A stretch of DNA of 64,000 bases from a phage (GCA_033286805.1 GCA_033286805.1_4727.1); one strand, 5' to 3'; counted from the stretch's first letter, positions 15,416 through 59,253 are shown. Notes: generated from the sequence alone by a model not told the origin. Made by a program: numbers and translations.

Positions 15416-15473
15416 CACCTAGGTAATGTAAGCGTCAAATTTTTTCTATTCGCAACGATAAACGGCATAGAAA
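15416..15473 (-). promoter_or_regulatory. conserved roughly 60-nt intergenic element, copy 1 (CACCTAGGTAATGTA ... GCATAGAAACC), upstream of gene 13829..15265
   Basis: shares the CACCTAGGTAATGTA box and the CATAGAA box with copies at 21897 and 59195; sits immediately 3' (on the minus strand) of a GC-rich hairpin. Confidence 0.45.
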
Positions 15474-15502
15474 CCTCCCCCAACCCTTACGGGCTGAGGG
15501 AG
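15474..15502 (-). terminator. GC-rich hairpin downstream of the candidate capsid gene (CCTCCC...GGGAGG)
   Basis: inverted repeat with inner CCC-TTAC-GGG; lies between the capsid stop (15603) and the next promoter-like element. Confidence 0.5.
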
Positions 15503-15602
15503 GCTGACTTATGTATCACGGTGCCGGATGAATGTCCGGTGCAATGAAACCATCCGCAACGTTGTCGTCAAGAATATCATCCAACGAAGCAGCTACGGTA
15601 GT

Positions 15603-17825
15603 TCAGTTAGTCTGAACCGGCAGCTTGATGTTTTCAGTGTAGACCTTACGCAGGTTCACAACGTTAATCAGACCCAGCAGCGGGCAGTTGTTAACGAAGC
15701 GGCAGCGCGGCTGAACCATGGTTTCTTTAGAAACCTGACCGTTACGGGTAACCTGAGCAACAGATACCAGTTCCGGTACATACAGGAACATACCGAAGGT
15801 CAGCGGATCCGGAGAACCCTGGATACCACGAGACAGGGTCACGAAGATCTTATCGCGCAGCATGACGTTCGGGTTATCTACAACCACGAAGTTGAAGCTT
15901 ACACCAACGGTACGGAAATCGCCATCGGTCTGCAGGAACTGCGGGATGTAGTTGTCAGTTGCTACTACGCAACGCGGTTTCTCATCAGCGTTGGAAGACA
16001 GCAGCTGCAGAGCTGGCTGATAACCAGACTCAGAGTACATGCGGTATGCCATTTCACGAATCACGTTCATGATCGCAGCAGACACTTCAGCACGACGTTC
16101 TGCGGTGGTGGTACCCTGAACAGATTTCTCCAGGTCCAGGTTGATTTCTTCGAACCACGGACGGATCAGGTAACGACCGAAACCTTCGATCTGGATGTCA
16201 CCGAACTGACGGAAGCGAGAGGTCGCAACCGCTTTCAGTGCGTCTTTGTAGCTGAACAGTTTCTCAACCATCAGGTTGTCGAAACGTGCGTTAGCAGCTT
16301 GGATCAGAACGTCCAGGTCAGCAGCGTTTTCTTCCCAATCCAGCGGACGAGGAATGGAGAACGGAGCCAGCAGGCCGATTGCGTAACGTTCTTGCTTCAT
16401 GTTGAAGTCAAGGTGCTTACCGCGCTCACGACGGTTGCTGTTGTTACGGCGGATACGCAGTTCGTAACCAACCAGTTTGAAGCTCAGGTCTTCAGCCAGT
16501 TGTTTGAACTCTTCGCTCTTACGCGGTTGTTCGATGTTGTCCTGATCAACCAGGCGATACAGTTCAGCGTTAGCGCCGTTAACACGCAGACCCGCTTTCT
16601 CTACGTTGGAAGAACCGTAAACTTCGATCGCCAGCTGAGCAGCAGATTTCGCATCGATGATGTCCTGCAGCGCTTCAGCTTTCGCACCTTTAACGTCTTT
16701 GGTGTTCTCATCAACGAAGATGGAGTGAGTGTCGAACGCCAGGGTCATTTTGCGGAAGTCGCCTTCCAGGGATTTCTGGAAACCGTTGGTGATCAGACCA
16801 GATACGTCGAACGGTACGTAAGAGGTTTTGCTGTGCTTGGTAGATTTGATTTCCACCAGGATTTTGGTCAGCGTGATCTGGGCGTCCAGCGCGTCGGTGT
16901 TGTCGCTGTAACCGTTAGCCAGGATGCTATCGTCTTCAGCGATACCGATCATGTCGATCAGTTTATCAACAGCCAGGTAAGACGTTTTATAAGTTACGCC
17001 TTTAATTTCGATGTCACGCGGAGCAACGATAGTTTTGTCAACGAAGTACTGCGCGTTAGCATCGTCAGCACGATAGATCGGATGCAGATCGGTCACGTCG
17101 TTGGACAGAACGTCGTTGTACATGAACGCATCCAGCAGCGGACGACGTACCCAATCAGCCGGAGTACCGTCAGCGTTACGACGCAGGTGGTTGAACACCA
17201 GCGGACGACGGAAAGATACATCATAACCGATCTGGTTCGGAGCCAGAACGATGGTGTTGTACAGTTCGTTACCCATGCGGCTCAGACGAGAAGCCTTCAC
17301 GTTGAACACAACGGAGTACGGCATCATGTCACGCAGTTCTTTCTGGTCGTAGGACAGCTGAACCAGTTCTTCAGATTCGCAACCGCAGGAATCAGCAGCC
17401 ATCATGACGAAGTTAGAGCTATCGACTTCACGGCCAGACGGAGTGGTGCTGATGTTCATGGAACGTGCTTGTTTAGCATATTCCACCGGGTTGCCATGAG
17501 CCAGCATGATCAGTGCTGCTGCACGAGCCTGCTGTGCGTTCATGGTGAACAGCTGTTCTTCAATACGCTGCTTCTCTTCCGGAGTGGTGGTTTCGAAGCC
17601 CAGCATGGACAGAACCGGTTCTTCGGCTTTACGGATGTCGCTGCTGAAGCTCTTAACATCCATTTCGTTAACCAGTTTGTCCATGGATTTGAAATCAACC
17701 TTAGAAGCAGATTCCATAGACAGGAAGGTGTTCTCCAGACCTTTGTCTGCTGGTTTGCTACCATTAGCGGTCAGGAACTGGCGAGTGGCCGCGACCTGTT
17801 GGCTAAGAAGGGTTTTATCATTCAT
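15603..17825 (-). CDS. candidate major capsid protein (740 aa); alternative is tail sheath
   Basis: strongest codon bias in the window (CTG, CGT, GGT, GAA, AAA) indicating very high expression; the 740-aa size is in the range I recall for phiKZ-like major capsid proteins; AAAGGA RBS; hairpin immediately downstream; N-terminal region contains S/A/G-x-E sites compatible with prohead-protease processing. Confidence 0.55.
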   Translation of the reverse strand: MNDKTLLSQQVAATRQFLTANGSKPADKGLENTFLSMESASKVDFKSMDKLVNEMDVKSFSSDIRKAEEPVLSMLGFETTTPEEKQRIEEQLFTMNAQQARAAALIMLAHGNPVEYAKQARSMNISTTPSGREVDSSNFVMMAADSCGCESEELVQLSYDQKELRDMMPYSVVFNVKASRLSRMGNELYNTIVLAPNQIGYDVSFRRPLVFNHLRRNADGTPADWVRRPLLDAFMYNDVLSNDVTDLHPIYRADDANAQYFVDKTIVAPRDIEIKGVTYKTSYLAVDKLIDMIGIAEDDSILANGYSDNTDALDAQITLTKILVEIKSTKHSKTSYVPFDVSGLITNGFQKSLEGDFRKMTLAFDTHSIFVDENTKDVKGAKAEALQDIIDAKSAAQLAIEVYGSSNVEKAGLRVNGANAELYRLVDQDNIEQPRKSEEFKQLAEDLSFKLVGYELRIRRNNSNRRERGKHLDFNMKQERYAIGLLAPFSIPRPLDWEENAADLDVLIQAANARFDNLMVEKLFSYKDALKAVATSRFRQFGDIQIEGFGRYLIRPWFEEINLDLEKSVQGTTTAERRAEVSAAIMNVIREMAYRMYSESGYQPALQLLSSNADEKPRCVVATDNYIPQFLQTDGDFRTVGVSFNFVVVDNPNVMLRDKIFVTLSRGIQGSPDPLTFGMFLYVPELVSVAQVTRNGQVSKETMVQPRCRFVNNCPLLGLINVVNLRKVYTENIKLPVQTN

Positions 17826-17974
17826 TGAAAGTATCCTTTACAGAATTAACTTATATAAGTCGGTCGATAGACCATAGCGTACACGCGTGCATGCGCCACT
17901 ATAGTATCAGTAAACACTTACCGTTGTTTAGGCTGTGATACAACACTAAAAATGCCGCATAACTTTTCCCTACG

Positions 17975-18595
17975 TCATAAACGACGCAGGCGATAATGGA
18001 TGGAACGATTGGTGCAATATGAACGGAACAGCGGCAATTGCGCAACTTCCGCAAGACTCATATTAATTCGCAGGTGTTCAATAACGGCGCTGTAGTTATC
18101 AGCAATACGATCGCTCAATAACTCTTCTGCCAATAAAGGAAGACAATCGACAACAATCGCGATCACATCCTCATTAACATAACGCACCCGAACACTCAAC
18201 GGACGTTTGTCTGGGCTGTAAGTTGGATCCGCCAAACGACGTTCAATATCACGCGGATAGCTCGTCAGTAAATGGTAATAACCATTGTCATAACGATTGA
18301 TGTACTCACACAGCACATCAACATTCTTCTCTGGCGGCAAACCTGTTTCGTCATAGTGATACGCAAACATACCACCAAGCAGGTTGTTAAGATGAACTGC
18401 AGGGTTCGCTTGTTCGTGTTCTTTCGTGATGAAGAAAGGCACGTTTTGAGCTGCGAAATAAAAACCTACATCATTGGGCGATAGTATGCCGAAAAGACTT
18501 TTAGGGTCTAATAACACCTGTAAGTCATCACGCGCATTTCGAATAATCGCGTGTTCTACCCAATTCGGAACGACGAGATATCGGAGTTCCTTCAT
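17975..18595 (-). CDS. hypothetical protein (206 aa)
   Basis: ATG at 18595 with AGAGGT RBS; divergent from the helicase-like gene. Confidence 0.6.
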   Translation of the reverse strand: MKELRYLVVPNWVEHAIIRNARDDLQVLLDPKSLFGILSPNDVGFYFAAQNVPFFITKEHEQANPAVHLNNLLGGMFAYHYDETGLPPEKNVDVLCEYINRYDNGYYHLLTSYPRDIERRLADPTYSPDKRPLSVRVRYVNEDVIAIVVDCLPLLAEELLSDRIADNYSAVIEHLRINMSLAEVAQLPLFRSYCTNRSIHYRLRRL

Positions 18596-18634
18596 TATGA
18601 TTACCTCTTTGCAAGTATCGAAAGGATTGAGTCG

Positions 18635-20245: not shown

Positions 20246-20270
20246 ACGCAAAAAAAAAGATTGTGCGGTT

Positions 20271-20302
20271 CCCTCCTCCAACCCGTAAGGGAAGGAGGAG
20301 GG
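20271..20302. terminator. bidirectional GC-rich hairpin between convergent genes (CCCTCCTCC / AACCCGTAAGGGAA / GGAGGAGGG)
   Basis: perfect 9-bp stem; A9 run upstream on plus strand (T-run after the hairpin for the minus-strand transcript); GTTATGACC follows on plus strand. Confidence 0.6.
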
Positions 20303-20318
20303 GTTATGACCGCTTTGA

Positions 20319-21123: not shown

Positions 21124-21693
21124 TTAGACGATGAGTGACCAGGTGGTAAGCACCCCGCTTGCGAATTCGAGCTTAAGACGTTTACCGATAAGTTGTTGTT
21201 GGATCATCTTCTCAGTGATACGTCGATCTTGCTGAACCGCTTTATCAAACGCTTCTTTTGCTTCAGCTTGGTAGAAGTTCGTTTCTTCGTTTTCGTCGAT
21301 CTCTTCGAGAGCATCCTCGTCGATGTCAGCAAGTTTCACTCGACCGTTTTCATCAGGTTGTTCTGCAGGTTCATTGTCATACGGCGTGTCTTTTGTTGGT
21401 GCGACACGATGTTGCAACTCGACCTGTGTTAACATGATCTCCATCTCACCATCGATAGGAATGATTTCATCGGCGCTGCCGTTTTCGGTCAGCTCTCGAC
21501 TTTCCAGTAATGTCGTCGTAACAGAGAACACCTCTTCAACAGGAACCTCATCATCGTCGATGGTGTTAACCGTGTTGCTGGTAACTTCGGCAACAACCAT
21601 CAAATCAAATGCGTGAGGGTCACCTGGCATTTTGATGCCTGGAAGTTTGTTGAGGTACCAAGGATCAAGAATCATGATTTCTGGATTAAACAT
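21124..21693 (-). CDS. hypothetical highly acidic protein (189 aa)
   Basis: ORF track; D/E about 24% of residues with few K/R; first gene downstream of a conserved promoter-like element. Confidence 0.6.
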   Translation of the reverse strand: MFNPEIMILDPWYLNKLPGIKMPGDPHAFDLMVVAEVTSNTVNTIDDDEVPVEEVFSVTTTLLESRELTENGSADEIIPIDGEMEIMLTQVELQHRVAPTKDTPYDNEPAEQPDENGRVKLADIDEDALEEIDENEETNFYQAEAKEAFDKAVQQDRRITEKMIQQQLIGKRLKLEFASGVLTTWSLIV

Positions 21694-21875
21694 CGTATTT
21701 TACCTTTCTATGTTAGGTGGATTGCGGATAGAAGAATCAATGCATAGATTGATCGTTCTATGTTAGAAATTATTGCCGAACTGGTTATGGTTATAACGCG
21801 TGTTTTCGTATGCTGACGGGTCGCGTATTAATAAGGTCATGACTGTATCCTCGATTATTAAGAGAAATTTACAAC

Positions 21876-21955
21876 GATAACAGTAACCGCTGTTATCACC
21901 TAGGTAATGTAGTCGCGAAATAAACTGGAGTAATGCGAAATAAGACAGCATAGAA
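21876..21955 (-). promoter_or_regulatory. conserved roughly 60-nt intergenic element, copy 2, with abutting 8-bp palindrome GATAACAG-N6-CTGTTATC
   Basis: near-identical to the copy at 59174..59253 (CACCTAGGTAATGTAGTCGCGAAATAAACTG...CGAAATAAGACAGCATAGAACC). Confidence 0.5.
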
Positions 21956-21987
21956 CCCTCTCCCAACCCAGCAGGGAAGGGAGAGGG
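21956..21987 (-). terminator. GC-rich hairpin (CCCTCTCCC / AACCCAGCAGGGAA / GGGAGAGGG)
   Basis: perfect 9-bp stem immediately after the stop of gene 21994..22626; followed on the minus strand by TTCTATGCTGTCTTATTTCG. Confidence 0.55.
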
Positions 21988-21993: not shown

Positions 21994-22626
21994 TCACCAA
22001 TGATCGAAGGAACCAGGAGTGTTACGAACGATCTCAACTTGGAAGGTTATTGGTACTGATGGCAATGAAACATATTCGCGTTGCGATAGCAGGACGTTGT
22101 CTTCTCGCTCATCGATGCGAGTAGAACCCGTCAGAAATTGGAACATAGCGACTTGAAGCTCATCGGTGAAACGGAGGTACTCACCGATGTGTGGTGTTGC
22201 ATCATATCGAATAAGTACGTTGCCAAACCGTCGTGCGATATTTGGAGTATCTGTGAACGAAACAGGGAAATCCAAAGTCATTCCCATCGTTTCACCTGGC
22301 TTCATTTTCCGAATCGACGCAATTGGCGCGTCGAAGATATTCCATTCTTCTTTCATCGTGTCTGGAAACACACCGCGATACAAGATGGTCTTTTGATGAC
22401 GATGAACGGGTTGTAAACGGTCAACCAATATTTTCAAAGGTTTAAGTTCTTCAGCCAATTCATAATCTGCTTGGATGTTCCACTTTGCCGCAAGTTCCAT
22501 TAGGTTGGGATACGCGCTATATTTATTGACGATAGCCCAGTTAACATTACGCAAATCGATAGGAAGGAATTTGATAATTTCCTTGTTGAATATCCATTGG
22601 TTTAATTTCTTAATCTTCGAAAGCAT
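21994..22626 (-). CDS. hypothetical protein (about 210 aa)
   Basis: ORF track 21994..22815 would overlap the upstream gene by 170 nt; internal ATG at 22626 lies 16 nt after the upstream stop; start uncertain. Confidence 0.5.
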   Translation of the reverse strand: MLSKIKKLNQWIFNKEIIKFLPIDLRNVNWAIVNKYSAYPNLMELAAKWNIQADYELAEELKPLKILVDRLQPVHRHQKTILYRGVFPDTMKEEWNIFDAPIASIRKMKPGETMGMTLDFPVSFTDTPNIARRFGNVLIRYDATPHIGEYLRFTDELQVAMFQFLTGSTRIDEREDNVLLSQREYVSLPSVPITFQVEIVRNTPGSFDHW

Positions 22627-33741: not shown

Positions 33742-33848
33742 TTGGGACTCCTACGTAGGAAAATCTTGGCGGGTGATCATGTCCGCCATTTACCTTCTGA
33801 ACCGTTGATTCAGAAGTCAAAAGATAACCGGATACCAACGTCATAAAA

Positions 33849-33880
33849 CCTTCCTCCAACCCAACAGGGAAGGAGGAAGG
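33849..33880 (-). terminator. GC-rich hairpin (CCTTCCTCC / AACCCAACAGGGAA / GGAGGAAGG)
   Basis: perfect 9-bp stem after the stop of gene 33891..35180; followed on the minus strand by TTTTATGACG. Confidence 0.55.
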
Positions 33881-36506: not shown

Positions 36507-36554
36507 GTGTTGTCTCCAGTAATGATTCAAAAGATAAACCTGAGCGGCATAGAA

Positions 36555-36586
36555 CCCTCTCCCAACCCGTCAGGGAAGGGAGAGGG
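36555..36586 (-). terminator. GC-rich hairpin (CCCTCTCCC / AACCCGTCAGGGAA / GGGAGAGGG)
   Basis: perfect 9-bp stem immediately after the stop of the highly biased 440-aa gene; TATG on both flanks. Confidence 0.6.
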
Positions 36587-38526: not shown

Positions 38527-39425
38527 ACAGCCGCCTCTTCTTTTCGTTTAATATCGTAACGAAGTTTCTTCAGTCGCTCTTCGTGATATTCGATCTGCTG
38601 CTGGATTTTTGGATCGTTGCCCGCATTCTGTTGCTTTTGCTTCAGTGACAAAATCCAATACTCCAACGCTTGGGCTTCTTCTTTGGCTGCTTGTAATGAT
38701 GCTTCTTCACGTTCGCTACGCCAGATGCGATAACGGTAAATAAGCGTGCTGGTCATTTGAGTGTCGGACCATGAGCCCATACGCATCGGGTCAGTATTAC
38801 CCGCGTTGTATAAGCCATTACCAACACCGTCTTCATCAGAAACCACAACATCCGGGATTTTATCCAACCCAGCAAGGATCTGTTGTTTCTGTCCGCACAG
38901 CACCTCGGTGGCAATGGCAAAACCGTACATGTTGGCGGTCAGGTAAGCAATCTCGTTTTTGGTGAAGAACTCACCAAGTGCTTTATCACCACCTGGCATG
39001 CTTTCGCAGATGACCGTTGCACGAAGCAGCGTACGAGCATAGCTAACGTAGAAGCCCAGGGACTCAACAAGACGTACCAGAGCAGCTTCTTTGAAACTTA
39101 GGCCGTCAGCGGCAACATCGATTTCCAGGTTTTTGTTAACACGTTTAACAATTTCTGGAATCAGGTCAACAGCATTACGTAGCGCTAAGTGAACGTTTTC
39201 TACCCAGCTTCCGGAGCGAACGCGGGTTAAACGCTGGTGCAGATCCTTATCAGCAAGTTTCCATAAGGCGCTTTCTCCCTTTTGGAGAAGCGAAGCGGAT
39301 GTCTCGTAGTAAGGAATCGCGGTGTTGTTGATTTCGTCACGGATTGATTCGAGTGCGTCAGCAACACCGGTGCGTTTAAAAAGCGGCTTCAAACCGCGAA
39401 TGAATTCTTTAAAATCGATTGCCAT
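38523..39425 (-). CDS. hypothetical protein (300 aa)
   Basis: ORF track; ATG start. Confidence 0.6.
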   Translation of the reverse strand: MAIDFKEFIRGLKPLFKRTGVADALESIRDEINNTAIPYYETSASLLQKGESALWKLADKDLHQRLTRVRSGSWVENVHLALRNAVDLIPEIVKRVNKNLEIDVAADGLSFKEAALVRLVESLGFYVSYARTLLRATVICESMPGGDKALGEFFTKNEIAYLTANMYGFAIATEVLCGQKQQILAGLDKIPDVVVSDEDGVGNGLYNAGNTDPMRMGSWSDTQMTSTLIYRYRIWRSEREEASLQAAKEEAQALEYWILSLKQKQQNAGNDPKIQQQIEYHEERLKKLRYDIKRKEEAAV

Positions 39426-41814: not shown

Positions 41815-44808
41815 ATGAGCGTAACCAACAAAGATCTTGCTGAACAGCTCAATCGCTATATGCTTTCACCTATTGAAATGCAGGCTGTTGCAAGCGATAT
41901 GATCCGTTTGGCTTCTGATGGTGAATTAACCCTGGTTGACCCCAGCTGTCCGTTTGTTTATCTGCTGGAGGTTGCAACGGCGACGGCGGCGAACCAGAAC
42001 GCACGGGATGAGTCCCGTGTTCGCGAACTGTATCCAAAACTTGCAACGAACTGGAACCAGCTCTATCGTTGGATGTATGATGAGTCGTACGTCGGACGTT
42101 TCGCAATGCCGGGTAAAACGGAAATCATTTATTCGTTAGGGTATCAGGAAATCCTCGATCGTGCGGTAGAGATTCCCAACACCATCGCCTCCGATGATTT
42201 AAGCCGTTCTTACAGCCGTAAGTTAGTGATACCGCGTACGACGGCGTTTACGGTGGCCGGGATGGATTTCGGGTTGCATTATCCCATCGAAATCCAAGTG
42301 CAAGCGCACGACCAGATACGCGTCGTTTATAACACTGATAACATCAGCCCATTGCAAACCTTGGAGAGTAACCAAGTTGAGTACGGGGTCGTTCGTGTAA
42401 AAGCGGGTAAAGTGTTGGTTATGCGTATCCCGCTGTTCCAGTTTAAAACACTGGTAAAAGATGTGCCGTTTAACAGCGTTCATGGGATGAACAGCAGCAT
42501 TACCTTCGAAGATCAGTTTTACCATTGTCGTGCATACATGTCGTCGGATAACGATACCTGGACGGAGATAGCGACAACACACAGTCAGCAGATTTACGAT
42601 CCGTTAACACCAACCATCGCGTTACAAGTAGAAGGGAACAAACTTAACTGGCGTGTTCCTGAAATTTATTTGTCTCAAGGTACGATGGATAAAAGCACCA
42701 TTCGACTTGAGGTGTTGACGACGAAAGGGAAAATCAGCGTCGACCCGTCTGATTACGACGTGACCGATTGGAAAGATAACTACATCGATCTGTCGCCAAA
42801 AGCCGAACAGAAATACAGTGCGCCGCTAAGTGCATTCAACATTAAAGGGATTTATAGCGAAGGGGCATTGTCGGGTGGACGATCTGCGTTAACGTTCGAG
42901 GAACAACGTGAACGTGTTATGGCGGGTGTGAACAAAACCAAGGTACCAATCACAGGAACGCAGGTCGAGCTGGTGCTTCAAGATGCGGGCTATGGGATGG
43001 TGACCACCATCGACAACGTAACTAATCGTTCGTTCCTGGCAACCCGAGATTTACCGCAATTGAGCGACAGCGTGCCGCAAGCCGGTTCGTTGATGGGGTC
43101 TTTCTATACGTCAGCCGCAGCATTGGTGAAAAGTAAGTTTGTCGCCGATAACGGCGATCGTATTACGATTAAACCTGATTGCTTGTATCGTGACAGTAAC
43201 GGAAGTATCGCGCTGTTGTCAGACGATGAAATTGACCGTATTAATGCAGGCAACTCCGATGCGAAGTTGAATGCGGTAAACAACGCCATGTTGTTCTACA
43301 GTCCGTTTCATTACGTATTAGATGCAACAAGCGATTTCGACATCCATGCTTATTACCTGGATGCCCCTAAGATCGGCACGCAAGCATTCCTCGACGCGAA
43401 CGAGACGATCCCGTTAACCGCTATGGTGACCGGATACCGTCTGGATCGTATCGCTGAAGGATATCGTCTAAGCCTCATTGTAGAAGGTAACGACGCATGG
43501 AAGGCGCTCGACGATAAAAACGTGCATATCCAGCTGGGGTTCAATCCGCGGGGTGAGGGTGATTATGCGACGATGCTAGCATCACCGACAACCGATGAAC
43601 AAGGTCGTCGTTTGTTCACCTTCGATATCACCACGAATTATGATTTTACGCGAATCCTGGCTGATGATTCCACGGCGTATGAACCGTATATCGCATTGAC
43701 GTCGTTCTCGATGTATGAATCAACACCGCGGGATTATTGGGCATCACTGCAGCAGTATTTGGAAATCTTCCATGTGGTGACGGATTACGCACCGGAAGAT
43801 GTCGACGGTATTTTACACAGTGCTTCCGATAATTACCTGGTTAAGAAACTCACGCTTCAAAATGGGTATTGTTTCTACCGTGAACGTCTCACCGCAACCT
43901 TTGGTTACGATCTGGACGGTCTTTGGATGCGCTCACGTACGGTGGCCTCGGAGATTACGTATAAACGTTACACCGAGAACATCCCGTGGGTGTATGACGA
44001 AGATATTCCAGCGACGGATGAGACCGGTTCGGTTATCATCGAACAAGGTGATGATGGTACGTTGTCGGTTAAATACCTGCATCGTAAAGGAGACCCGAAA
44101 TTAAACAGTGATGGAAGCCAAGCCTATCGTTATCTGAAAGGCGACATCATGAAAGATAATTACGGTAATCCGATCCCCGTTGATGAACGTGAGGTTCTGC
44201 GTAACCTGGACATGTTCTTTATCGATGCGTCGTATCTGCTCGCGAACGATACGGACGTGATTGACTATCGTAATGCGATTCCTACGCAGCTTATTGAGTG
44301 GATCCAGAACGATATCAGCACGTTCAGGAATTTCTGTTATGAGGAAACAGAGATTTCATTGTATCCTAAGCAATCGCTGGGGTATGTGGATGTTATTGTG
44401 GAAAACGGATTGGAAACAACGCTTCCTGCTGCCTTATCGTTCAACGTGACGCTTTACTTACCGGCTAAGCAGTACGCAGACTTGGATTTACGTCAAGTCC
44501 TTCAAGCGATGGTATCGAAAGTCATCAATGAATGCTTAACATCACGTACAGTGGCTAAAGCAGAAATGATCGCGATGATTCGTGAGGAGGGCGGTGACGA
44601 CATCCTTAACGTTGAAATCGATGATTTTGGACCAGGTAAGAACCTCAGTGTTTATACCGCGAAGAACGACGGTGTTCGTTGTGCGGTGAAGAAAGAGCTA
44701 TATGTGAAAGCGGATGGTATCTTGTCCGTACGCGAAGCGATTGATGTGAGTTTTGTGAAACACGCACAAAGCAACAGTTCAGCGCTAGCGCAAGGCCTTC
44801 GTGTCTAA
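41815..44808 (+). CDS. hypothetical large protein (997 aa)
   Basis: ORF track; GAGGGA RBS; starts 3 nt after the upstream stop; no diagnostic motif recognised. Confidence 0.65.
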   Translation: MSVTNKDLAEQLNRYMLSPIEMQAVASDMIRLASDGELTLVDPSCPFVYLLEVATATAANQNARDESRVRELYPKLATNWNQLYRWMYDESYVGRFAMPGKTEIIYSLGYQEILDRAVEIPNTIASDDLSRSYSRKLVIPRTTAFTVAGMDFGLHYPIEIQVQAHDQIRVVYNTDNISPLQTLESNQVEYGVVRVKAGKVLVMRIPLFQFKTLVKDVPFNSVHGMNSSITFEDQFYHCRAYMSSDNDTWTEIATTHSQQIYDPLTPTIALQVEGNKLNWRVPEIYLSQGTMDKSTIRLEVLTTKGKISVDPSDYDVTDWKDNYIDLSPKAEQKYSAPLSAFNIKGIYSEGALSGGRSALTFEEQRERVMAGVNKTKVPITGTQVELVLQDAGYGMVTTIDNVTNRSFLATRDLPQLSDSVPQAGSLMGSFYTSAAALVKSKFVADNGDRITIKPDCLYRDSNGSIALLSDDEIDRINAGNSDAKLNAVNNAMLFYSPFHYVLDATSDFDIHAYYLDAPKIGTQAFLDANETIPLTAMVTGYRLDRIAEGYRLSLIVEGNDAWKALDDKNVHIQLGFNPRGEGDYATMLASPTTDEQGRRLFTFDITTNYDFTRILADDSTAYEPYIALTSFSMYESTPRDYWASLQQYLEIFHVVTDYAPEDVDGILHSASDNYLVKKLTLQNGYCFYRERLTATFGYDLDGLWMRSRTVASEITYKRYTENIPWVYDEDIPATDETGSVIIEQGDDGTLSVKYLHRKGDPKLNSDGSQAYRYLKGDIMKDNYGNPIPVDEREVLRNLDMFFIDASYLLANDTDVIDYRNAIPTQLIEWIQNDISTFRNFCYEETEISLYPKQSLGYVDVIVENGLETTLPAALSFNVTLYLPAKQYADLDLRQVLQAMVSKVINECLTSRTVAKAEMIAMIREEGGDDILNVEIDDFGPGKNLSVYTAKNDGVRCAVKKELYVKADGILSVREAIDVSFVKHAQSNSSALAQGLRV

Positions 44809-44830
44809 AACAAAAATAGCATGAGCATAA

Positions 44831-44862
44831 CCCTCCTCCAACCCGTCAGGGAAGGAGGAGGG
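44831..44862. terminator. bidirectional GC-rich hairpin between convergent genes (CCCTCCTCC / AACCCGTCAGGGAA / GGAGGAGGG)
   Basis: perfect 9-bp stem between the plus-strand stop (44808) and minus-strand stop (44872); TATG on both flanks. Confidence 0.6.
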
Positions 44863-44871: not shown

Positions 44872-47800
44872 TTATCTTACGTTACTGCTATTCTGCTGTT
44901 CGCTGAACCAACCGTACACCTTGAGATCGGTACCATATCTCAGTGCGATATACGCATTCAGCGCAGCACAGAACAAAGACGCGAATGCCCATATCAGCGA
45001 AGGATCAACATCTTCCGTTACCACTGGGAGAGTATTATCCGGTTCCCATGATGGAGAACTGTCCATGAACGTCGTGTACCATTCCCGCCGTTGTTCTTCA
45101 GTGGTAAAGTCGCTATGGGGTTCCAATGCTTCTTTTGCCAGACGTCGATATTCGAACATATGCGTTGCTAAAGCCGATGAGTTACCAGATTCGCCTTCAT
45201 AGTTCGGATCCACCGCATAACAGAGTTCTGTGGAATCTAACAAAGCGACCGCCTGTGTGATGCTGTCGGCAGTGCCTGCACCATAGAGCTCGATAGACCG
45301 CGAGAGCTTCTCACAGAACGCATTTAACGCGGCAGGATTGGACACCTGAAGGTCAAGGCCTAATGTCCACGGATAGTTACTGAATACACCCGTAAACCGC
45401 GGCATAACACCCAACAGATGTTGTCCGATTACAGCACGGTTATAAACAGCCCGGTTATAGACTTGAAACGCAGCCTCCAGGGCTTGGTTATAATGACGAC
45501 GAAGTTCATCACGCGTGTTGCGGAACCTGTTTGCCGCGAGACTTGTGGCTGCAACGCTACAAACATCGTAATTGGTGGACGAGAGCACAACCTCGTTAAG
45601 ATCGAACGATTCCTGTTTCAATGTTCCGCTAACAGCTGCCGCTTCGCTGTTCGCTTTATCGACAACTGTACTCAAAGCGTTGATGTAACGTTTAGCTCGG
45701 ACCTCCAACCATTGTGCGATGCCGAGAATATCCACCGCAGCTTTAGCAAGATCGCGTGCATTCACGATTTCGTTCTTCAACGCCCCTAAACCTTTATTTT
45801 CAGGCGATGAGGCTTGTTGACGAATCATGCTGTTCAACATGGTAAGCAGATTATCCAACTCATGTCCGCTGACCTTGTTACGCGCATCGGTAATCGGCCC
45901 TTGCAGGAATTTACGGCAACCATCGTTGTATCGAATCAGTTTATCCACATCGATAGATTCGTTCGTAGATTCCTTGAACTGATCCTTCAATTCTTCACGG
46001 TAGTCGTGGATTTCACTTGCGAGATTATCGATAGTGATACCGTCATGTCCAAGAAGAACTTTATTGAAGTTACCTTTCTCGAATGCCAGAGCAAGACCTT
46101 CACGAATCTTAGCGAGTTTATCCTGATCGAGTTCACGACCGTTCGATAGCTCTTTCACTTCCGAGCTGATTAATGCCGAAACGTTACCCAGATTGTCGGT
46201 AACTCCTTTGAACGCTCCCGACCAAATCGTTCCTACTTCAGCATATTTCGCAATGGTCTGAATACCGACGGTGTGTAGCGACGCTAAACGTTTCTTCGTG
46301 CCTTCGGTAAGCAGAGCGTCTTTAGCTCGCGTAAGCTGACTGTTATTAGCTTCCGCCTGCTGAATCGCTGCTTTCGCACTTCCATTACGCCAGCTCTTAA
46401 CCAGCCAATCAACCAAACGTTTTAGGATATTGACGGTGTATTCCATTGTCCGCCGTAACGTTTCCCACGCGCTTTCTGCGGTATAGATGCCGTACCCTTC
46501 CATCTTCAACGCTTTCAAGCTTGTTTGACGTGCCAACCATTCTACCGTTGCAGAGCAAACGTTTACTAATGCTTCCAGGTAGTTGTAATAGACGTCTGTT
46601 GCAGTTGTTTCGTTGAACTTTGAATGCAGATAGAACTGATCGTAAAGTTCGTCGTCATCGCCGAAGGCATCATAGTTCCACAGTTCTGTATCACAACCTG
46701 TACCGCAGAAGACGTCAGCTGTCGTAAACTCTTTAAGCGCTTTAGCTGCGTCATTTGTCAGGAATTTACCTGTTTCAACTACATCGTCAACATTAAGCTT
46801 GGGGAGTTCGTCGGTGACTGGCTCTTCCAACATCAGCATATTGAAGAATGTGCTGTACTTGTATCCGAGCCATTTTGGATAACTGCTTTCAGGGATCGTA
46901 GACAGCGGCTTGATTTTCTTGGCTTCAGCCAATGTGTCTTTTGCGACCTGATATTGGTTTTCCCCAGCCTTGACGCGACGTAATGCTTTTTCTTCCAACT
47001 GCTTAAGCTTGGCATGGCGTGCTTGTGCTGGAGCTTCAACAAGTTTTTGTACCGACCGCATTGCAGAAATCGCTTCTTTTAATACGATCATCGGCATACG
47101 AACTTTACCGTCGTCGAAACTAAGAGCGCGAGCGACACGTTTACTTACGACCGGCTTATCATGGATATTTCGTTCCACCCACGATTTGTTTGCGTAAGTT
47201 TGAGCGATCTGCTGTTGGATATTTTCAAGGTATTTCCAGCTGCTGGATGCTTTATTATCCAAAAGCGGATTCGGTCCCTTCTTATCGAAAAGTTTCAGAA
47301 TCGGACCAAAGAAACCTTCCTGTACGAGTTCGATACGCGTGTATCCGTCAGCCGCTTCGATTTCTTCTTGGGTTTTGTCCCAGAGCTGTTCACTACGGAC
47401 AGCAGTAGCTGTTTCAGATACCGACATAACAAGCTCGGCAACAACTTCAGCGCAGGTCAGTACGGTACGCACGCATTGCAGTAGCATACGCTGGTAAACG
47501 ATACGGGCGTTTTGTAAACGTGCGATAACCGCTAAATAACCGATATTGTCAAGACGTTCGTCGGCTTGAGCAGAGTCAACACGTTCTATCAGTTGTTTAA
47601 CCAGCGCGGCTGTTTCCGGATAATCGTTCACGACGTCACGCATAATTCGTGATGCGAAAACCGCGGTACCTAAAACAGTGAGGAGTGTTTTACTATCCCA
47701 TTCTTTTGGTGTCGCTACCGATTCAGTAGGGATGAGATTTCCCGCCTGGTCGAAGTACGGCATAAGGACATTGATATCAGTAGACGGAACAGCAGTAATT

Positions 47801-48558: not shown

Positions 48559-51357
48559 TTACGCTAATTTACCGAAACCGGCTTTCTGTAGTTTCTCGTT
48601 GATCAGTTTTGCTTCCGCGAAAACATAATCACGATACGCGGTCACTAACCCGTCCACCCGTGAACGCAAGGCTTCTTCGAAGCTATACCACGCAGCGATT
48701 TCACGAATCTGTGCGTTGATATAATCAACGGTTGAGCGAAGCTCGGTTGCGTTTTCTTGCGGGATGGCTTTCACCTGGCGAGCAACGTCATTTAAACGAC
48801 GGAACTGTGTTTCGATTTCTTTAAACTTACTGTCGGCAAGTTTGCTGAATTCGTCACCAGAACGGGTAAATAACAGATAGCTGTTGCCGTCAAGTGCGGT
48901 CGCTAACTGCTGAAGTACGTTGGTGTCCGGATACACAGGAGTACCGCTTTGCAATACTTTCTCACCGAATTCCGCGAAGTCCTTCGGCGGTAAGTGCGCA
49001 GACGTTGTCAATTCGTTGAAACGGAAAGTCAGCGAATTATCATACAGCATCCGGTACGCTTCCATACCCTGTTTCATGGTACCGGCCAGGTTAGCCAGAC
49101 GCGGAGCAATCTCACCCTCTTTAGCGCGTTTCTGATCTTCTAACGCCCCTTCCAGTTCTTTACATTGGTCGTTCAGATACACGATACGATCGGGACGCAG
49201 ACGACGCATCTCACGAAGAATAGTATCCAGCTTGCCTTCCTGGAAATAACCTAACGTTAAAGACGTACACGCTTGCTGAAGACGATCGAAGACCGGTAAA
49301 GTCACCATCTCCTTACGGATACCATCAACAATCGCAGAGACAGCCGAAAGTTTCTGTTCTGTCGTTAATGGAACATCAGAGGCCGACTTGCTGGGTGCAC
49401 CAACAACGTTACGCATTGCGTCGGTATCCTCGGTTTTATCAACCTCTTTACGAACATGCTCATCAGGAACATAAACGTTAGCATTACGTTTCGCCTGCTT
49501 GATGGCGTCGTTGGCCGCTTTTTCGGTGGCTGCTACGCTATCAGCACGTTTCTTCAAGAGTTCAATAATCCAGAGCAACAGACGACGAATCGCAGTATAG
49601 GCCGTCGTGATGATGACACCGATAACAGCCATCTTCATGATACCGAACGATTCCATGGTCGGCTCTAATGCCTGGTCTGGCATATACCGTTCACGCAGTT
49701 CCAGATAGATCTGCTCATCTGGTTTGCTGACCTCACCACGATGCGAAGTACGATAGATGGCTTCGTCAATCTCAACAAGATCTTTGCGGGCCTGACGGTC
49801 TGTTTCGGTCAGATAAGCGCAGCCAGATACGTCGTCTTCAAAACTTTCGAACTTAAAGAAATCGACAACCATCTGGGCAAGCATCTCCTTCTTAGCAGGA
49901 TCGAGTGTCTTCGCATCTTCTTTTTGCTTAGCCGCTGCTTTATCGAATTTCTCTTTGTAATCATTCAGGGGTTTCACTGCTCTTGCTTTCAGTGCCTGAT
50001 AAATGATTTTCCAATCATCGTCACGTTCGAGGATGATGAAATGGTTTTTGAGTTCGAAAGCGCGATAGCGTGCAACGAGCTGTTCCACCTGAATGTGGGC
50101 GAGTTGGATATCCATTAGCCAACGGGACATCGCTGAAATCAAACGACTAAAAGCAAACAGCGCTTGATACGCGAGTTTCATATGCGTCTCGTACAGCTCT
50201 ATATCGCCGCTCCGGATATCGGCTGTTGGATTCATTTCTTTCGTTGCTTTGAAGATCTGCTCTGCTTCTTTCAGCGTCTTTTCGAACTTAACGTCATTAA
50301 ACGCGGTGAATGGTTCAGCGAGCTCATGCATTTTATCATGGAGTTCACGAACCCAAGCTTCCTTGTTGTTGCGGATGACGCTTCCATCGTGAAGTTCGGT
50401 TTGGTGTTTCTGTACCCATTCTTCGACGATATCTGCTGCGGCGACAACACCGACGTTTTTACCAACGAGAGGAACAATGGCTTCAAGTGTGCCGCGTCGG
50501 ACACCCCATAACCGATTTACCGAATCGTAGAATTCTCTGATCTCGGCTATATGTGGAACAATATTTAAGAAGGTGTTCCCGTTATGGCTCATCGATGAAG
50601 CCATTTCCGAGAATTGCTGGAACTTAATGACGACATCAGGGATCGTGTCCATCAGCCATTCTGCAGTATACTTCGCTTTCTCTTTCAGATTTTTGTCAGC
50701 GATTTCTTTAAGGTTAATCGCGCTACCGTATCCTGCAAGTTCGTTGTAGACGTCGTTAACCGTCATCTCTTTATCCAGCATTTCTTTAAAACGTGGATAA
50801 TCTGCACCTAACGCATCGATGACTTCTTGGATGATGTCGTCTGTGGTGGCGATAAATTTATTCGTACCCCCGTAATGTTTCCAGATTTTCTGTAGCGTCT
50901 TCTTAAAGAATTCGAAGACGAATGTCCAGATACGCTTAATGAGTTCCCAGACTTTCTTCGCACCATCGACAAACAGTTTAGAGACCTTGGCAACGAATCC
51001 TTCCTGTACCAACTCAACGCCGTTACGTGATGGGATTTCGGTGAAGAAAGCATCCGGTAGTTGTTTCGGGAACGCATCACCAAGTCGCATACGCAATTCG
51101 GGTACATCGGCACGAGAAATACCACGCGTCGTTAGCTGCTCGTGAAGACGAACGTTTTCTTCACCAGAGGCTACGAATTCGTTAACGTCAAATGAAACCA
51201 GTTCTTGATCTTCGGTGGTAACGACGCTTGAACCGTCACTGGTTTGGATGTCTTCGTCAGGGAATGCCATGAGCATACCGTGACGCATTTCAACCACTCC
51301 GTAATCGGTTGCTAAACCGAATTCGTTGTGGTCTGGGGTAATAACTGGGATACTCAT
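48559..51357 (-). CDS. very large hypothetical protein (932 aa), helical; virion internal protein-like
   Basis: ORF track; ATGA overlap with the upstream gene. Confidence 0.65.
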   Translation of the reverse strand: MSIPVITPDHNEFGLATDYGVVEMRHGMLMAFPDEDIQTSDGSSVVTTEDQELVSFDVNEFVASGEENVRLHEQLTTRGISRADVPELRMRLGDAFPKQLPDAFFTEIPSRNGVELVQEGFVAKVSKLFVDGAKKVWELIKRIWTFVFEFFKKTLQKIWKHYGGTNKFIATTDDIIQEVIDALGADYPRFKEMLDKEMTVNDVYNELAGYGSAINLKEIADKNLKEKAKYTAEWLMDTIPDVVIKFQQFSEMASSMSHNGNTFLNIVPHIAEIREFYDSVNRLWGVRRGTLEAIVPLVGKNVGVVAAADIVEEWVQKHQTELHDGSVIRNNKEAWVRELHDKMHELAEPFTAFNDVKFEKTLKEAEQIFKATKEMNPTADIRSGDIELYETHMKLAYQALFAFSRLISAMSRWLMDIQLAHIQVEQLVARYRAFELKNHFIILERDDDWKIIYQALKARAVKPLNDYKEKFDKAAAKQKEDAKTLDPAKKEMLAQMVVDFFKFESFEDDVSGCAYLTETDRQARKDLVEIDEAIYRTSHRGEVSKPDEQIYLELRERYMPDQALEPTMESFGIMKMAVIGVIITTAYTAIRRLLLWIIELLKKRADSVAATEKAANDAIKQAKRNANVYVPDEHVRKEVDKTEDTDAMRNVVGAPSKSASDVPLTTEQKLSAVSAIVDGIRKEMVTLPVFDRLQQACTSLTLGYFQEGKLDTILREMRRLRPDRIVYLNDQCKELEGALEDQKRAKEGEIAPRLANLAGTMKQGMEAYRMLYDNSLTFRFNELTTSAHLPPKDFAEFGEKVLQSGTPVYPDTNVLQQLATALDGNSYLLFTRSGDEFSKLADSKFKEIETQFRRLNDVARQVKAIPQENATELRSTVDYINAQIREIAAWYSFEEALRSRVDGLVTAYRDYVFAEAKLINEKLQKAGFGKLA

Positions 51358-55157: not shown

Positions 55158-55196
55158 GCCCCTCCCCCTGGCGGAAGCCGGAGGGAGGGGTGGAGG
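55158..55196. terminator. GC-rich imperfect hairpin with T-run, shared terminator for the polymerase fragment (plus) and gene 55209..55682 (minus)
   Basis: CCTCCC...GGGAGG arms followed by TTTTATGTGTTTTT on the plus strand. Confidence 0.5.
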
Positions 55197-55208
55197 TTTT
55201 ATGTGTTT

Positions 55209-55682: not shown

Positions 55683-55685
55683 ATA

Positions 55686-55716
55686 GCCCTTCCCTAGCCG
55701 TCAAGGCCGGGGAAGG
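55686..55716 (-). terminator. GC-rich hairpin (CCTTCCC...GGGAAGG)
   Basis: inverted repeat between the small genes; followed on the plus strand by GGTATGTTT. Confidence 0.45.
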
Positions 55717-55732
55717 GTATGTTTACGTGTAA

Positions 55733-56128: not shown

Positions 56129-56168
56129 TTTTTTTTATCCTTAATGTTATCGGTTTAGAAATAATATT

Positions 56169-56933: not shown

Positions 56934-56935
56934 GA

Positions 56936-57394
56936 TTACCCATTAGCTCCTTCTTCGTCTGGAGAGTATTCCATCGTGTAGAATTCATAACCGTCGGAAA
57001 ACTTGAGTGTTAATGTAATAGGGAAATCGCACGGCATAGCTGATTTCGTAAATGCGTTATTAGCAACATCAGCCAACCGACGTATAGCATCAGTCCCGCT
57101 GACGCTGAATGGTAGTTGTATGTTGATAAGGATGCGGTGCTTGTAAACATAGAAAACAACGGTGCTGTCAAGATAAACGCTATGGAACGGTATTGTTGGG
57201 ATGCGTTCCACGATGGTAAAATACGTCCCGTCATTATCGCTATGTCCCACCGACCAAATATCGGATTTGCGTAGATTTTGTTTGAGAGATTCGATACTTC
57301 GAGTGACGGTATCAGCAACAGGTGCGACGTAAGCGTCTTTATGCGAGTCGAAAAGTTCGTTGACGTTAGATTCGAATGAATACATTGTTGCCAT
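56936..57394 (-). CDS. small hypothetical protein (152 aa), small paralog family
   Basis: ORF track; C-terminal ...CDFPITLTLKFSDGYEFYTMEYSPDEE. Confidence 0.55.
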   Translation of the reverse strand: MATMYSFESNVNELFDSHKDAYVAPVADTVTRSIESLKQNLRKSDIWSVGHSDNDGTYFTIVERIPTIPFHSVYLDSTVVFYVYKHRILINIQLPFSVSGTDAIRRLADVANNAFTKSAMPCDFPITLTLKFSDGYEFYTMEYSPDEEGANG

Positions 57395-57460
57395 TATTCT
57401 ACCTCAATGGTTTAACCGATACGTGCCCCACCTAACAAGGGACACGTTATCGTTGATTAA

Positions 57461-57955
57461 TTACTCTTCTGTGTTTTCATTGTCTGGATCGTAGTGGAAT
57501 TCGAACAGCCCTGAACCGTCGTGCCCGTTGATTGTTAGTATAACGGGCATATCGAATCCTCGGACACGCGAATGAAAACACTGTGCTAATTTTAGTTTGG
57601 CATATGCCGCTATTTCATTGATGGCAATACACGACTCACCTGTTATACTCAGTATAACGTCGATACTAATGATGTTATCATGCAACGCAAAACGCCAGCG
57701 ATCGATACGATTATTATCTTTATCGGTTGTCTCGTTTACGAGATAGACTTTATCATCAACCGACAAAGCGGGACTCCAGCAACGTTCGTTTATTAAATTC
57801 GCCTGGAGTTTTAGTATCGTCTGATCGATAATATCCCAACACGTAACCAGCGTGGTGTCAGGCACTGAGTAGAGAAGGGCGTGCACTTTATCCTTTATTT
57901 TAAGTGCTTCCGCAGGACGTCCGCAAATACCATGCATTTCAACTTTCTTATTCAT
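57461..57955 (-). CDS. small hypothetical protein (about 164 aa), small paralog family
   Basis: ORF track start 57961 is GTG; ATG at 57955; C-terminal ...FDMPVILTINGHDGSGLFEFHYDPDNEN. Confidence 0.5.
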   Translation of the reverse strand: MNKKVEMHGICGRPAEALKIKDKVHALLYSVPDTTLVTCWDIIDQTILKLQANLINERCWSPALSVDDKVYLVNETTDKDNNRIDRWRFALHDNIISIDVILSITGESCIAINEIAAYAKLKLAQCFHSRVRGFDMPVILTINGHDGSGLFEFHYDPDNENTEE

Positions 57956-57998
57956 ATTCACTTCTTTCTTAATCTAAATGTTAGTTGGGGTGGGATGC

Positions 57999-58601
57999 TT
58001 ACATGCTTTCTAGCATATTGACGATCATGGAACCCATACCGAAACTCGGTCTTTCACCGATGTACTCAGCAAGCTGGCGATGGACGTCTTTTGGATTTCC
58101 TTCTTCACCATCGGCATCGATGTAAACCGAAAAAGAAACCGAATCGGAATCCACGCTGATAACCAGACGACGTTCATTGCGTTCCTTGAGCGTGTCGACG
58201 ATAGATGCTTTCAGTACCGGGATCGCATTCATCGCGTGCAAGATATCTCCATCGGGTTTCGGCAGATCGATCTTTTCTTTCAGGTCGATATTGATGTTGG
58301 TTACAATTGGGTTGAGGTCGACCTTGACGTAATCGTTAGGGTACATGCGAATAATCGCACGATCAATATCTGAACCGTAAAAGTCAACACGTGGCTTTAA
58401 CACTTCTTTGTTTGGATCCATGTTTTCATCCATACCTGCCTGCAAGAAACGTTCTACGTTATCCAGTTCACGATAAACTGACGCTTCGATTTCTTTCAGA
58501 TAGTTGGCTGCGGTTTCATGTTCTTTGCGCAGCTCGTCTTTAAGGAGCTGTACGGTGGTTTCACTGGAACGGATGCTGTTCGCGAATTGGGTAATTGACA
58601 T
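57999..58601 (-). CDS. hypothetical protein (200 aa)
   Basis: ORF track; ATG start. Confidence 0.55.
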   Translation of the reverse strand: MSITQFANSIRSSETTVQLLKDELRKEHETAANYLKEIEASVYRELDNVERFLQAGMDENMDPNKEVLKPRVDFYGSDIDRAIIRMYPNDYVKVDLNPIVTNINIDLKEKIDLPKPDGDILHAMNAIPVLKASIVDTLKERNERRLVISVDSDSVSFSVYIDADGEEGNPKDVHRQLAEYIGERPSFGMGSMIVNMLESM

Positions 58602-58657
58602 ATCGAATTCCTTAAATTATCTTGAGTTCAATTAATGATGAAAAGCTGTAAAAAAAA

Positions 58658-58675
58658 GGTGGGGCGAACCCCACC
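58658..58675. terminator. rho-independent-type terminator (GGTGGGG / CGAA / CCCCACC) flanked by A/T runs on both sides
   Basis: 7-bp GC stem with tetraloop; A8 upstream and A4 downstream on plus strand, giving a T8 run after the hairpin on the minus strand. Confidence 0.65.
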
Positions 58676-58700
58676 AAAACGTCAGACACACGCAGGAAAA

Positions 58701-59126
58701 TTAATTCAGTGATGCATATAACGCGTAACGACTGTAGATCTCAACCGCCGGTCCGTTATGCGTTAACAGACCATCCTGGTTGTAATATTGGAAAAATGAA
58801 TAACGTTTGTCGAAGTGATAAACAAAAGCAATGTCTTTGCTGCCAAGACCTGTGATGCGTGGTCTGTTTTTATCTAGCAGAGCTTTGACTTTTAACAGTG
58901 TTGCCGCACGTGCTTTAACGTTAGGGATCAAGCCATCACAATCGATATAAACTGTGTAACCTGTTTCAGATGTTGCGACGGTTGTATTACGATTGACGCG
59001 GAAGATTTTTGTTTCGTATGTACTATCTTCAAGAATTGGGTTTTGTTTTTCGTATTTTCGTTTACGTAGAAATTCTACAACGGTGATATAGTTAGCGGTG
59101 ATATGTCCGGTTATAGCTTGTAACAT
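58701..59126 (-). CDS. hypothetical protein (141 aa)
   Basis: ORF track; first gene downstream of the conserved element copy 3. Confidence 0.55.
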   Translation of the reverse strand: MLQAITGHITANYITVVEFLRKRKYEKQNPILEDSTYETKIFRVNRNTTVATSETGYTVYIDCDGLIPNVKARAATLLKVKALLDKNRPRITGLGSKDIAFVYHFDKRYSFFQYYNQDGLLTHNGPAVEIYSRYALYASLN

Positions 59127-59173
59127 CTTGACATCCTCTTATATCGGATTGATTACAGTTATCTTAAATAGGC

Positions 59174-59253
59174 GATAAGATATTTTGCTCTTATCACTAA
59201 GGTAATGTAGTCGCGAAATAAACTGCGTTAAAACGAAATAAAACAGCATAGAA
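59174..59253 (-). promoter_or_regulatory. conserved roughly 60-nt intergenic element, copy 3, with abutting 7-bp palindrome GATAAGA-N8-TCTTATC
   Basis: near-identical to copy 2 (CACTAAGGTAATGTAGTCGCGAAATAAACTG...CGAAATAAAACAGCATAGAAACC); 68 nt upstream of the ATG at 59126. Confidence 0.5.

Follow-up and report, generated by a model that had tools for sequence, protein, structure and literature searches.

Early promoters read by the virion RNA polymerases of jumbo phages have been known as a class since 2014, and promoter recognition by these enzymes is still poorly understood. Every jumbo phage with RNA polymerases of its own carries, near position -10 of its early operons, an AT-rich motif that is highly conserved and specific to that phage and that serves as the virion-polymerase promoter (PMC7598289). 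The early promoter of AR9 reads AAATATATATTAT-(6N)-G+1, and transcription in phiKZ and phiR1-37 also starts 6 nt past the element (PMC5312081). Conservation in the early promoters of phiKZ and 201phi2-1 is found near -20 and -30 as well (PMC8244752, PMC11512511), the early motif accompanies the experimentally mapped primary start of phiKZ chimallin (PMC8244752), and phiKZ transcription is independent of the host polymerase (PMC7598289, PMC5312081). Here we analyze a 64,000-nt stretch of phage DNA (GCA_033286805.1, the whole of which is called the window below) that contains three copies of a conserved element, and we conclude that these elements are very probably early promoters of a Goslar-like chimallivirus, recognized by its multisubunit virion RNA polymerase (vRNAP). 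As the promoter class is well known, its presence here will not surprise a specialist. We found no Goslar early promoter sequence in the literature searched, and the Goslar GenBank record annotates terminators only and no promoters.

A 4-kb piece of the window surrounding the second copy is 97.4% identical to Escherichia phage vB_EcoM_Goslar, its sole match in the phage collection, and the window corresponds to approximately 27.8-91.8 kb of the Goslar genome in the same orientation, with nearly all genes on the minus strand. Goslar is a 237-kb nucleus-forming jumbo phage of E. coli (Chimalliviridae) whose annotation includes several RNA polymerase beta-like subunits, chimallin and PhuZ. It serves as the E. 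coli model for nucleus-forming phages, and vesicle-stage transcription by its injected polymerase is under active study. Among deposited phages in the phage collection we found no close relatives of Goslar (the next-best major capsid protein is ~32% identical), and IMG/VR and metagenomes contained several Goslar-like genomes that are 90-98% identical.

A 39-nt motif present three times in the window and 14 times in the Goslar genome

The original prediction described a conserved element of about 60 nt located in three places upstream of minus-strand genes and accompanied in two of them by a palindrome, and sequence inspection together with an exact repeat search confirmed all three copies and both palindromes in the window. 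The part of each element that we assign to the promoter lies on the minus strand, at 15415-15453 (copy 1, class C, GAAAAAATTTGACGCTTACATTACCTAGGTGA), 21896-21934 (copy 2, class D, CAGTTTATTTCGCGACTACATTACCTAGGTGA) and 59194-59232 (copy 3, class D). Copy 2 matches copy 3 at 86% of positions in a 72-nt stretch (21889-21960 versus 59187-59258), and a 26-nt core is common to all three copies (repeat families D7 and D17). The 39-nt motif of the window copies follows the pattern ttAAT.cA....aTTTCrCGrCTAyATTACyTA.gTGA. The 3' end of the conserved block in these copies reads ...CTACATTACCT(A/T)(G/A)GTGA, and the central core is TACATTAC in each, with C at the third core position.

A 15-mer search of the whole Goslar genome, allowing up to three mismatches, returned 13 matches, all on the minus strand, and a weight matrix with a cut-off of 12 bits was built from 12 credible Goslar sites. 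Alignment of these 12 sites revealed conservation over ~39 nt (ttAAT.cA....aTTTCaCGrCTAyATTACyTA.gTGA), with ten positions invariant. The matrix detected exactly 14 sites in Goslar, scoring 28.7-51 bits, all of them on the coding strand and either intergenic or overlapping gene ends or a dubious open reading frame (ORF) by a few nucleotides; two of them, at 160776 and 226680, were outside the training set, and one 15-mer match located inside a plus-strand gene dropped out. Exactly three sites were detected in the window, scoring 45.2, 46.5 and 44.7 bits for copies 1, 2 and 3, and the rest of the window stayed below 12 bits. The maxima obtained from 20 block-shuffled 237-kb genomes were mostly below 16 bits, with one of 21, indicating that the conservation goes far beyond chance, as had been proposed. 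A "shorter relative" that had been described at 39425 gave no matrix match on either strand; it lies in reverse orientation to its gene, within a 39-nt gap inside a late operon, and is a chance resemblance.

The sequence TA.ATTAC is invariant in all 14 Goslar sites and in the three window sites, and an invariant G, flanked by a near-invariant T and A, follows exactly 6 nt past the core. Relative to this G, which we infer to be the 5' end of the transcript, a TTTC element lies at -22 to -19 and invariant A residues at -34 and -29. Copy 1 is identical to Goslar 43251-43289, the orthologue of copy 2 (49717-49755) differs by one change and that of copy 3 (86690-86728) by two, all at non-invariant positions, and none of 11 substitutions among close relatives falls on the ten invariant positions. 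The 14 promoters form four sequence sub-classes, with copy 1 grouped with the chimallin promoter (GAAAAAATTT... type) and copies 2 and 3 in a sub-class of their own (CAGTTTATTTCRCGACTACATTACC). Sequence beyond +1 is not conserved among the 14 sites.

Motif sites head the genes expressed at the early vesicle stage

Blocking translation of ChmA arrests Goslar infection at the early vesicle stage, at which only the injected virion RNA polymerase accompanies the DNA and the early programme alone runs, and per-gene RNA-seq counts at 30 min are available for control and ChmA-blocked infections (10.1101/2023.09.20.558163, Sup. Table 2). The log2 ratio of knockdown to control (log2 fold change, log2FC) separates nine retained blocks of genes (about 0 to +1.3) from all other genes (-3 to -8). 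The retained blocks are gp001-004, 014-021, 037-040, 044-047, 070-075, 094-159, 162-225, 214-216 and 200-201, and a motif site is present at the 5' edge of every one of them (9/9). The three window copies head the blocks gp040-037, gp047-044 and gp075-070, each directly after a late gene (major head protein gene gp041, gp048 and gp076, respectively). The ninth block had no 15-mer match; the RNA-seq data pointed to the location of its site, and the matrix then found 226680 there. Site 160776, before gp175, was likewise expected from expression and then found by the matrix. Within the blocks, log2FC steps upward at each of the five internal sites (for example, from 0.1 at gp106 to 1.0 at gp105 and from -0.5 at gp176 to 0.9 at gp175), and one of these sites precedes chimallin. 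A genome-wide search for further copies, which had been suggested as a check and whose failure would have counted against the element, yielded 14 sites in Goslar, each heading an early transcription unit.

Homology to mapped virion-polymerase promoters and position of the start

We searched 200 kb of the phiKZ genome and found TATATTAC-(6N)-G before early genes, with upstream TTT.A.A and A-rich blocks and always on the coding strand. Goslar and phiKZ thus share the octamer core TATATTAC, the 6-nt spacer and the G, and blocks rich in T near -20 and in A near -30, and in both phages the elements are co-oriented with the genes and located upstream of early operons, including that of chimallin (28-32 copies in phiKZ versus 14 in Goslar). 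They differ in that Goslar accepts C at the third core position, has a GC-richer CACGRC block between the -20 element and the core, and conserves YTA.GT in the spacer as well as T-1 and A+2, and the hosts and genera of the two phages are far apart. The likeness is closest at chimallin, where phiKZ TGAAAAAAATTTgAGattTATATTACtaaattGAAt aligns with Goslar TGAAAAAAATTTcAGggtTATATTACctaggtGAAt. The two chimallin promoters (Goslar 172963-173001, phiKZ 45546-45583) are almost identical from about -35 to +3; under the 6N rule each would have a 66-nt leader, and each mRNA would begin with a 5'-terminal hairpin. With only 25% identity between the major capsid proteins of these phages, the near identity of the chimallin promoters indicates that very distant chimalliviruses have kept the way in which virion polymerases recognize promoters. 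Judged by sequence comparison, the Goslar motif is a homologue of the mapped promoter class.

AR9 also offers a parallel: a virion multisubunit RNA polymerase reads its promoters, in which 6 nt separate an AT-rich ATATTA(T/C) core from a G start (PMC5312081; the likeness is to the published consensus). AR9 differs in having a uracil-containing genome and a longer, pure-AT core, and in not forming a nucleus. Applying the 6N rule of phiKZ and AR9 to the Goslar motif places +1 at the invariant G and TAYATTAC at -14 to -7. The exact start is therefore probably the G of GTGA, corresponding to 15416, 21897 and 59195 in the window and to 43252, 49718 and 86691 for the three Goslar orthologues. From upstream to downstream, the promoter would be composed of an A-rich/TTAAT.CA element at about -36 to -29, TTTC at about -22 to -19, the TAYATTAC core, a semi-conserved 6-nt spacer (YTANGT), and G at +1 followed by A. 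Another possible source for the start was the legend of Extended Data Fig. 4 in the Goslar study, which is ambiguous; the displayed sequences begin 91 nt upstream of start codons (10.1101/2023.09.20.558163). For the second gene shown, the 91-nt point is merely the end of chimallin, so the legend does not fix +1.

The core and the start also bear on whether the host polymerase of E. coli, with sigma-70, might initiate at the elements early in infection. They lie between genes, upstream of coding sequences, and copy 1 contains a TTGACG; none of the three copies, however, showed a -35/-10 pair in a consensus scan (-35 TTGACA and -10 TATAAT, 16-18 nt spacer), and TA.ATTAC, T-1 and G+1 fit no sigma-70 element. 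Moreover, the same core occurs in phiKZ, whose transcription needs no host polymerase, and early transcription in Goslar takes place inside a vesicle that contains vRNAP. We consider recognition by the host enzyme to be extremely improbable.

It had also been suggested that the conserved 60 nt are transcribed and function as RNA, either as a shared 5' leader or as a small RNA. Small non-coding RNAs and short transcripts derived from 5' untranslated regions have been reported in phiKZ-like phages (PMC10914365; 10.1101/2023.09.22.559000), and in the leader of copy 2 a terminator-like hairpin stands before a stretch rich in U. By homology with the mapped phiKZ and AR9 promoters, however, the conserved block spans -37 to +2 and is located upstream of the start, the sequence that follows +1 is the part that varies among the 14 sites, and Rfam returned no match at the gathering score in the whole window. 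Read-through into the block should also be rare, given the strong terminator in front of it. A role as RNA is accordingly highly improbable, and the promoter half of the "promoter/operator" alternative in the original prediction is the one that the expression match and the homology to phiKZ uphold.

Some observations weigh against our reading of the elements as vRNAP promoters. The position of +1 was derived by homology, and the RNA-seq evidence is gene-level and comes from Goslar rather than from the window's own phage. In addition, some upward steps in the expression ratio have no motif (before gp236, gp227, gp168-170, gp156 and the plus-strand gp145), so the motif does not account for all early initiation. 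We also observed intermediate ratios, -0.4 to -1.3, for gp176-181 and gp244-245; together with the motif-less steps, these suggest either further, different start signals or mixed early/late expression.

Palindromes at the predicted start

Two of the window copies are associated with minus-strand palindromes, GATAACAG-N6-CTGTTATC at 21876-21897 (copy 2; -7.8 to -9.5 kcal/mol) and GATAAGA-N8-TCTTATC at 59174-59195 (copy 3), each of which corresponds to nt +1 to +22 of the predicted transcript. The RNA 5' ends are predicted to be 5'-GAUAACAG[CGGUUA]CUGUUAUC for copy 2 and 5'-GAUAAGA[GCAAAAUA]UCUUAUC for copy 3, such that both transcripts would open with a perfect stem-loop from nt +1. When nt +1 to +40 of each Goslar early transcript were folded, 6 of the 14, that of chimallin included, formed a hairpin of 4 bp or more from the first nucleotide on, compared with 0.95 expected from composition-matched shuffles (P about 2e-4) and a frequency of 8% among random 40-mers starting with GA. 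The excess is maximal at offsets -2 to 0 from the predicted start, and the hairpin sequences are unrelated among sites except for the obligatory GA...UC.

The phage N4 virion RNA polymerase, which is a single-subunit enzyme, uses promoters in which DNA hairpins upstream of +1 form part of the recognition determinant. N4 and the Goslar-type elements have in common an injected virion polymerase and an inverted repeat near the start, and they differ in that the Goslar-type inverted repeat lies downstream of +1 and is missing from most copies.

An earlier suggestion was that the palindromes are the binding site of a protein, in which case a dimeric phage protein bound to GATAA(C/G)AG...CT(G/C)TTATC over the start would repress or activate both operons as a classical operator. 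The half-sites are alike at 7 of 8 positions, the palindromes overlap the predicted start, which is the classical position for a repressor, and early transcription has to be limited later in infection (PMC5312081). Several features of the palindromes argue otherwise. The spacing of the arms is unequal (6 versus 8 nt). Where the arms of copies 2 and 3 diverge, they do so at one base, and the pairing base on the other side changes with it (C:G to G:C), as a hairpin predicts; the GA with which the palindromes open simply belongs to the promoter, whose invariant end it forms. At four further early starts, a hairpin unrelated in sequence occupies exactly this position, and in relatives the loops vary and the stems are kept: variable positions among the metagenomic relatives number 3/50 in stems versus 24/110 elsewhere, and one metagenomic copy-3 variant has three loop changes and an intact stem. 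These relatives are all 90-98% identical, which makes the power to detect covariation low. Furthermore, Pfam and PHROGs searches of the ten proteins encoded downstream identified no helix-turn-helix or other DNA-binding family, the only matches being one "polymerase" PHROG and a sub-threshold Cas9_C_2. An operator is therefore very unlikely, and the pattern favours an RNA (or single-strand) hairpin over a sequence-specific protein-binding site.

Stem-loops at the extreme 5' end, of the type described for ompA by Belasco and co-workers, stabilize bacterial mRNAs, as they leave no single-stranded 5' end for RNase E or RppH. The predicted Goslar hairpins resemble these in starting at the first nucleotide of the transcript and leaving no single-stranded 5' end, and differ in that Goslar early mRNA is made in a vesicle and must be exported, such that the hairpin could serve another purpose. 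Protection or marking of early mRNA by a 5'-terminal hairpin is the most likely role for the palindromes, an assignment that we make tentatively and that may well prove wrong. A broader proposal, which we regard as doubtful, is that the stem-loops at +1 of copies 2 and 3, chimallin and others constitute a dedicated vesicle-stage signal (a tag for exporting early mRNA from the vesicle, a shield from host RNases that act in a 5'-end-dependent manner or, for copy 2, one of the two states of an attenuator built from two hairpins) and that the modules are also mobile, spreading in front of new early genes. Some findings count against a function for the hairpins. One copy-2 variant has two stem changes that are non-compensatory, and the 5' hairpins predicted for many Goslar early transcripts are not general in phiKZ, where we found no such enrichment (2-3/11), although its chimallin mRNA does start with one. 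The hairpin criteria were, moreover, chosen after the data had been seen, and their reference point is itself a predicted start.

The copy-2 leader can also form an alternative hairpin at +5 to +27 (window 21871-21893, minus strand; ACAGCGGU/AUCGUUGU, followed by AAAUUUCUCUU), which was classed as terminator-like and shares nucleotides with the 5'-terminal hairpin. A C at +24, as present in some relatives, makes it the more stable fold (-10.5). The overlapping hairpins could form a two-state leader or attenuator.

Late-to-early boundaries in the window

The three copies share a common order on the minus (coding) strand, in which a GC-rich terminator hairpin (-24 to -26.5 kcal/mol) is followed by a short tail (TTCTATGC, which can also be written (G)GTTCTATGC), the 39-nt motif, a leader and a start codon. 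This arrangement agrees with the earlier description of elements lying between a terminator-like hairpin and the next minus-strand gene at variable distance, which we measured as 151, 204 and 69 nt from copies 1, 2 and 3, respectively. We propose that the polymerase, which enters the cell with the DNA, transcribes the early genes from these promoters. Each promoter in the window is positioned right behind a strong terminator that closes a late operon, such that the terminator-promoter pair forms a late-to-early boundary and the promoter opens an operon of small early proteins, most of them unknown. The motif is the form that virion RNA polymerase early promoters take in the Goslar lineage, located behind terminators at late-to-early boundaries. 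Nearly every gene downstream of the sites encodes a protein that belongs to no known family, which is usual for early genes of jumbo phages (PMC11512511).

At copy 1, the terminator hairpin at 15474-15503 (minus strand; 13 bp and -26.5 kcal/mol by RNAfold; family D1; tail TTTCTATGCC) closes the late unit that contains the major head protein gene, and the boundary corresponds to that between gp041 (late) and gp040 (early) in Goslar. The first gene of the early operon, at 13829-15265 on the minus strand, encodes a 478-aa homologue of gp040 that belongs to no known family. It is followed by homologues of gp039 ("polymerase", phrog_2943), gp038 and gp037, extending down to ~9075, and the genes of this operon have a log2FC of approximately +1 in Goslar. 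The gp038 homologue, an 852-aa early protein (9403-11958, minus strand), is the one with the Cas9_C_2 match in Pfam, which is probably due to chance (E 0.0017; 18.6 bits, below the cutoff of 27).

The copy-2 terminator hairpin (21956-21987, minus strand; -25.9 kcal/mol; repeat families D1-D5; tail TTCTATGCTG) closes the upstream late unit at the boundary between gp048 (late) and gp047-044 (early). The first sizeable gene of this early operon, at 21124-21693 on the minus strand, encodes a 189-aa gp046 homologue of no known family, with gp045 and gp044 next, to 20319. A putative 25-aa ORF (MTLLIRDPSAYENTRYNHNQFGNNF) with a Shine-Dalgarno sequence is located within the 204-nt leader at 21763-21840 on the minus strand.

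The third boundary, between gp076 (late, log2FC approximately -5) and gp075-070 (early, approximately +1.1), has its terminator hairpin at 59256-59291 on the minus strand (-24.1 kcal/mol; tail TTTCTATGCTG), which closes the upstream late unit. The first early gene, at 58701-59126 on the minus strand, encodes a 141-aa gp075 homologue of no known family, and the operon runs to ~55209 (gp070). An RNA polymerase beta-like subunit gene, the homologue of gp078, is located nearby at 60567-61868 on the minus strand; the assignment is from the Goslar annotation, and the ORF was confirmed in the window. Since it is expressed late (log2FC approximately -4.9), its product is presumably one of the subunits of the virion RNA polymerase acting at these promoters. 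The vRNAP subunit that was tagged in the Goslar study is gp196 (10.1101/2023.09.20.558163).

Terminator repeats and possible mobility of the modules

The terminators belong to a family of near-identical, GC-rich hairpins on the minus strand (CCCTCTCCC..GGGAGAGGG), with members in the window at ~9031, 15463-15503, 20261-20301, 21946-21986, 33839-33879, 36545-36585 and 44821-44861. The tail TTCTATGC, found behind several members, includes TATG, which is the core of late promoters in phiKZ, and at 36547 this tail is located before a late gene that has no early promoter. The extent of the element as originally described therefore needs revision: the promoter part stands, and the end given as ...ACAGCATAGAA(C/A)CC or CAGCATAGAA(C/A)CC is the tail of this separate repeat family, which is also found without a promoter, for example at 36547. 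We considered whether TCTATGC is an over-represented word resembling a late promoter and rejected it, as it was observed 13 times versus ~29 expected in Goslar and follows only some of the terminators.

Composite promoter-terminator motifs called PeSLs flank variable genes in T4-type phages (PMC2839356, PMC4122927), and the modules of terminator, promoter and hairpin in the window might, besides being promoters, act as similar recombination cassettes that shuffle early genes. As in T4-type PeSLs, a short module of conserved early promoter and stem-loop is repeated before unrelated small early genes and stands beside an indel; T4-type PeSLs differ in having host sigma-70 early promoters. From the terminator tail to the hairpin, copies 2 and 3 are more alike than the consensus demands, as shuffling would explain, the proteins encoded behind them are unrelated (we found no paralogy between these genes), the promoters fall into sub-classes, and the copy-2 module borders on a 650-nt insertion that Goslar lacks. 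This is, however, a single indel beside one module rather than a segment flanked by two modules, and the likeness of copies 2 and 3 could stem from shared functional constraint within their promoter sub-class. We therefore view a cassette function as unlikely.

The insertion (~650 nt at window 21994-22626, minus strand) is missing from Goslar, where the junction is at 49812/49813, just after the gp048 stop codon, and is present in IMG/VR contig 3300011560. It encodes an ORF of ~210 aa that has no relative in Pfam, PHROGs, PADLOC or PDB and for which a single-sequence AlphaFold model was unusable (pLDDT 32). By eye, the putative protein contains an R-S-E-like pattern (LYRGV...SFTDT...QREYV) that recalls ADP-ribosyltransferases, which is our guess at its nature.

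Goslar-like genomes and gene-start annotation

At least five near-complete Goslar-like genomes of 208-249 kb are present in metagenomes (ERZ1026903.5, OGZS01000006.1, ERZ1026852.3, JACXXQ010000003.1 and ERZ1643250.25). None of the pieces compared is exactly equal to the window, and the promoter sites are present in these genomes with small variations. Goslar gp047, as annotated at 49584-49772, starts upstream of the predicted early start and overlaps the promoter, and its annotated start is probably wrong; the putative 25-aa ORF of the copy-2 leader is found there in its stead. The map of 14 sites, with a predicted start for each, offers a handle for correcting such gene starts, for reporter and engineering work, and for studies of promoter recognition in vitro.

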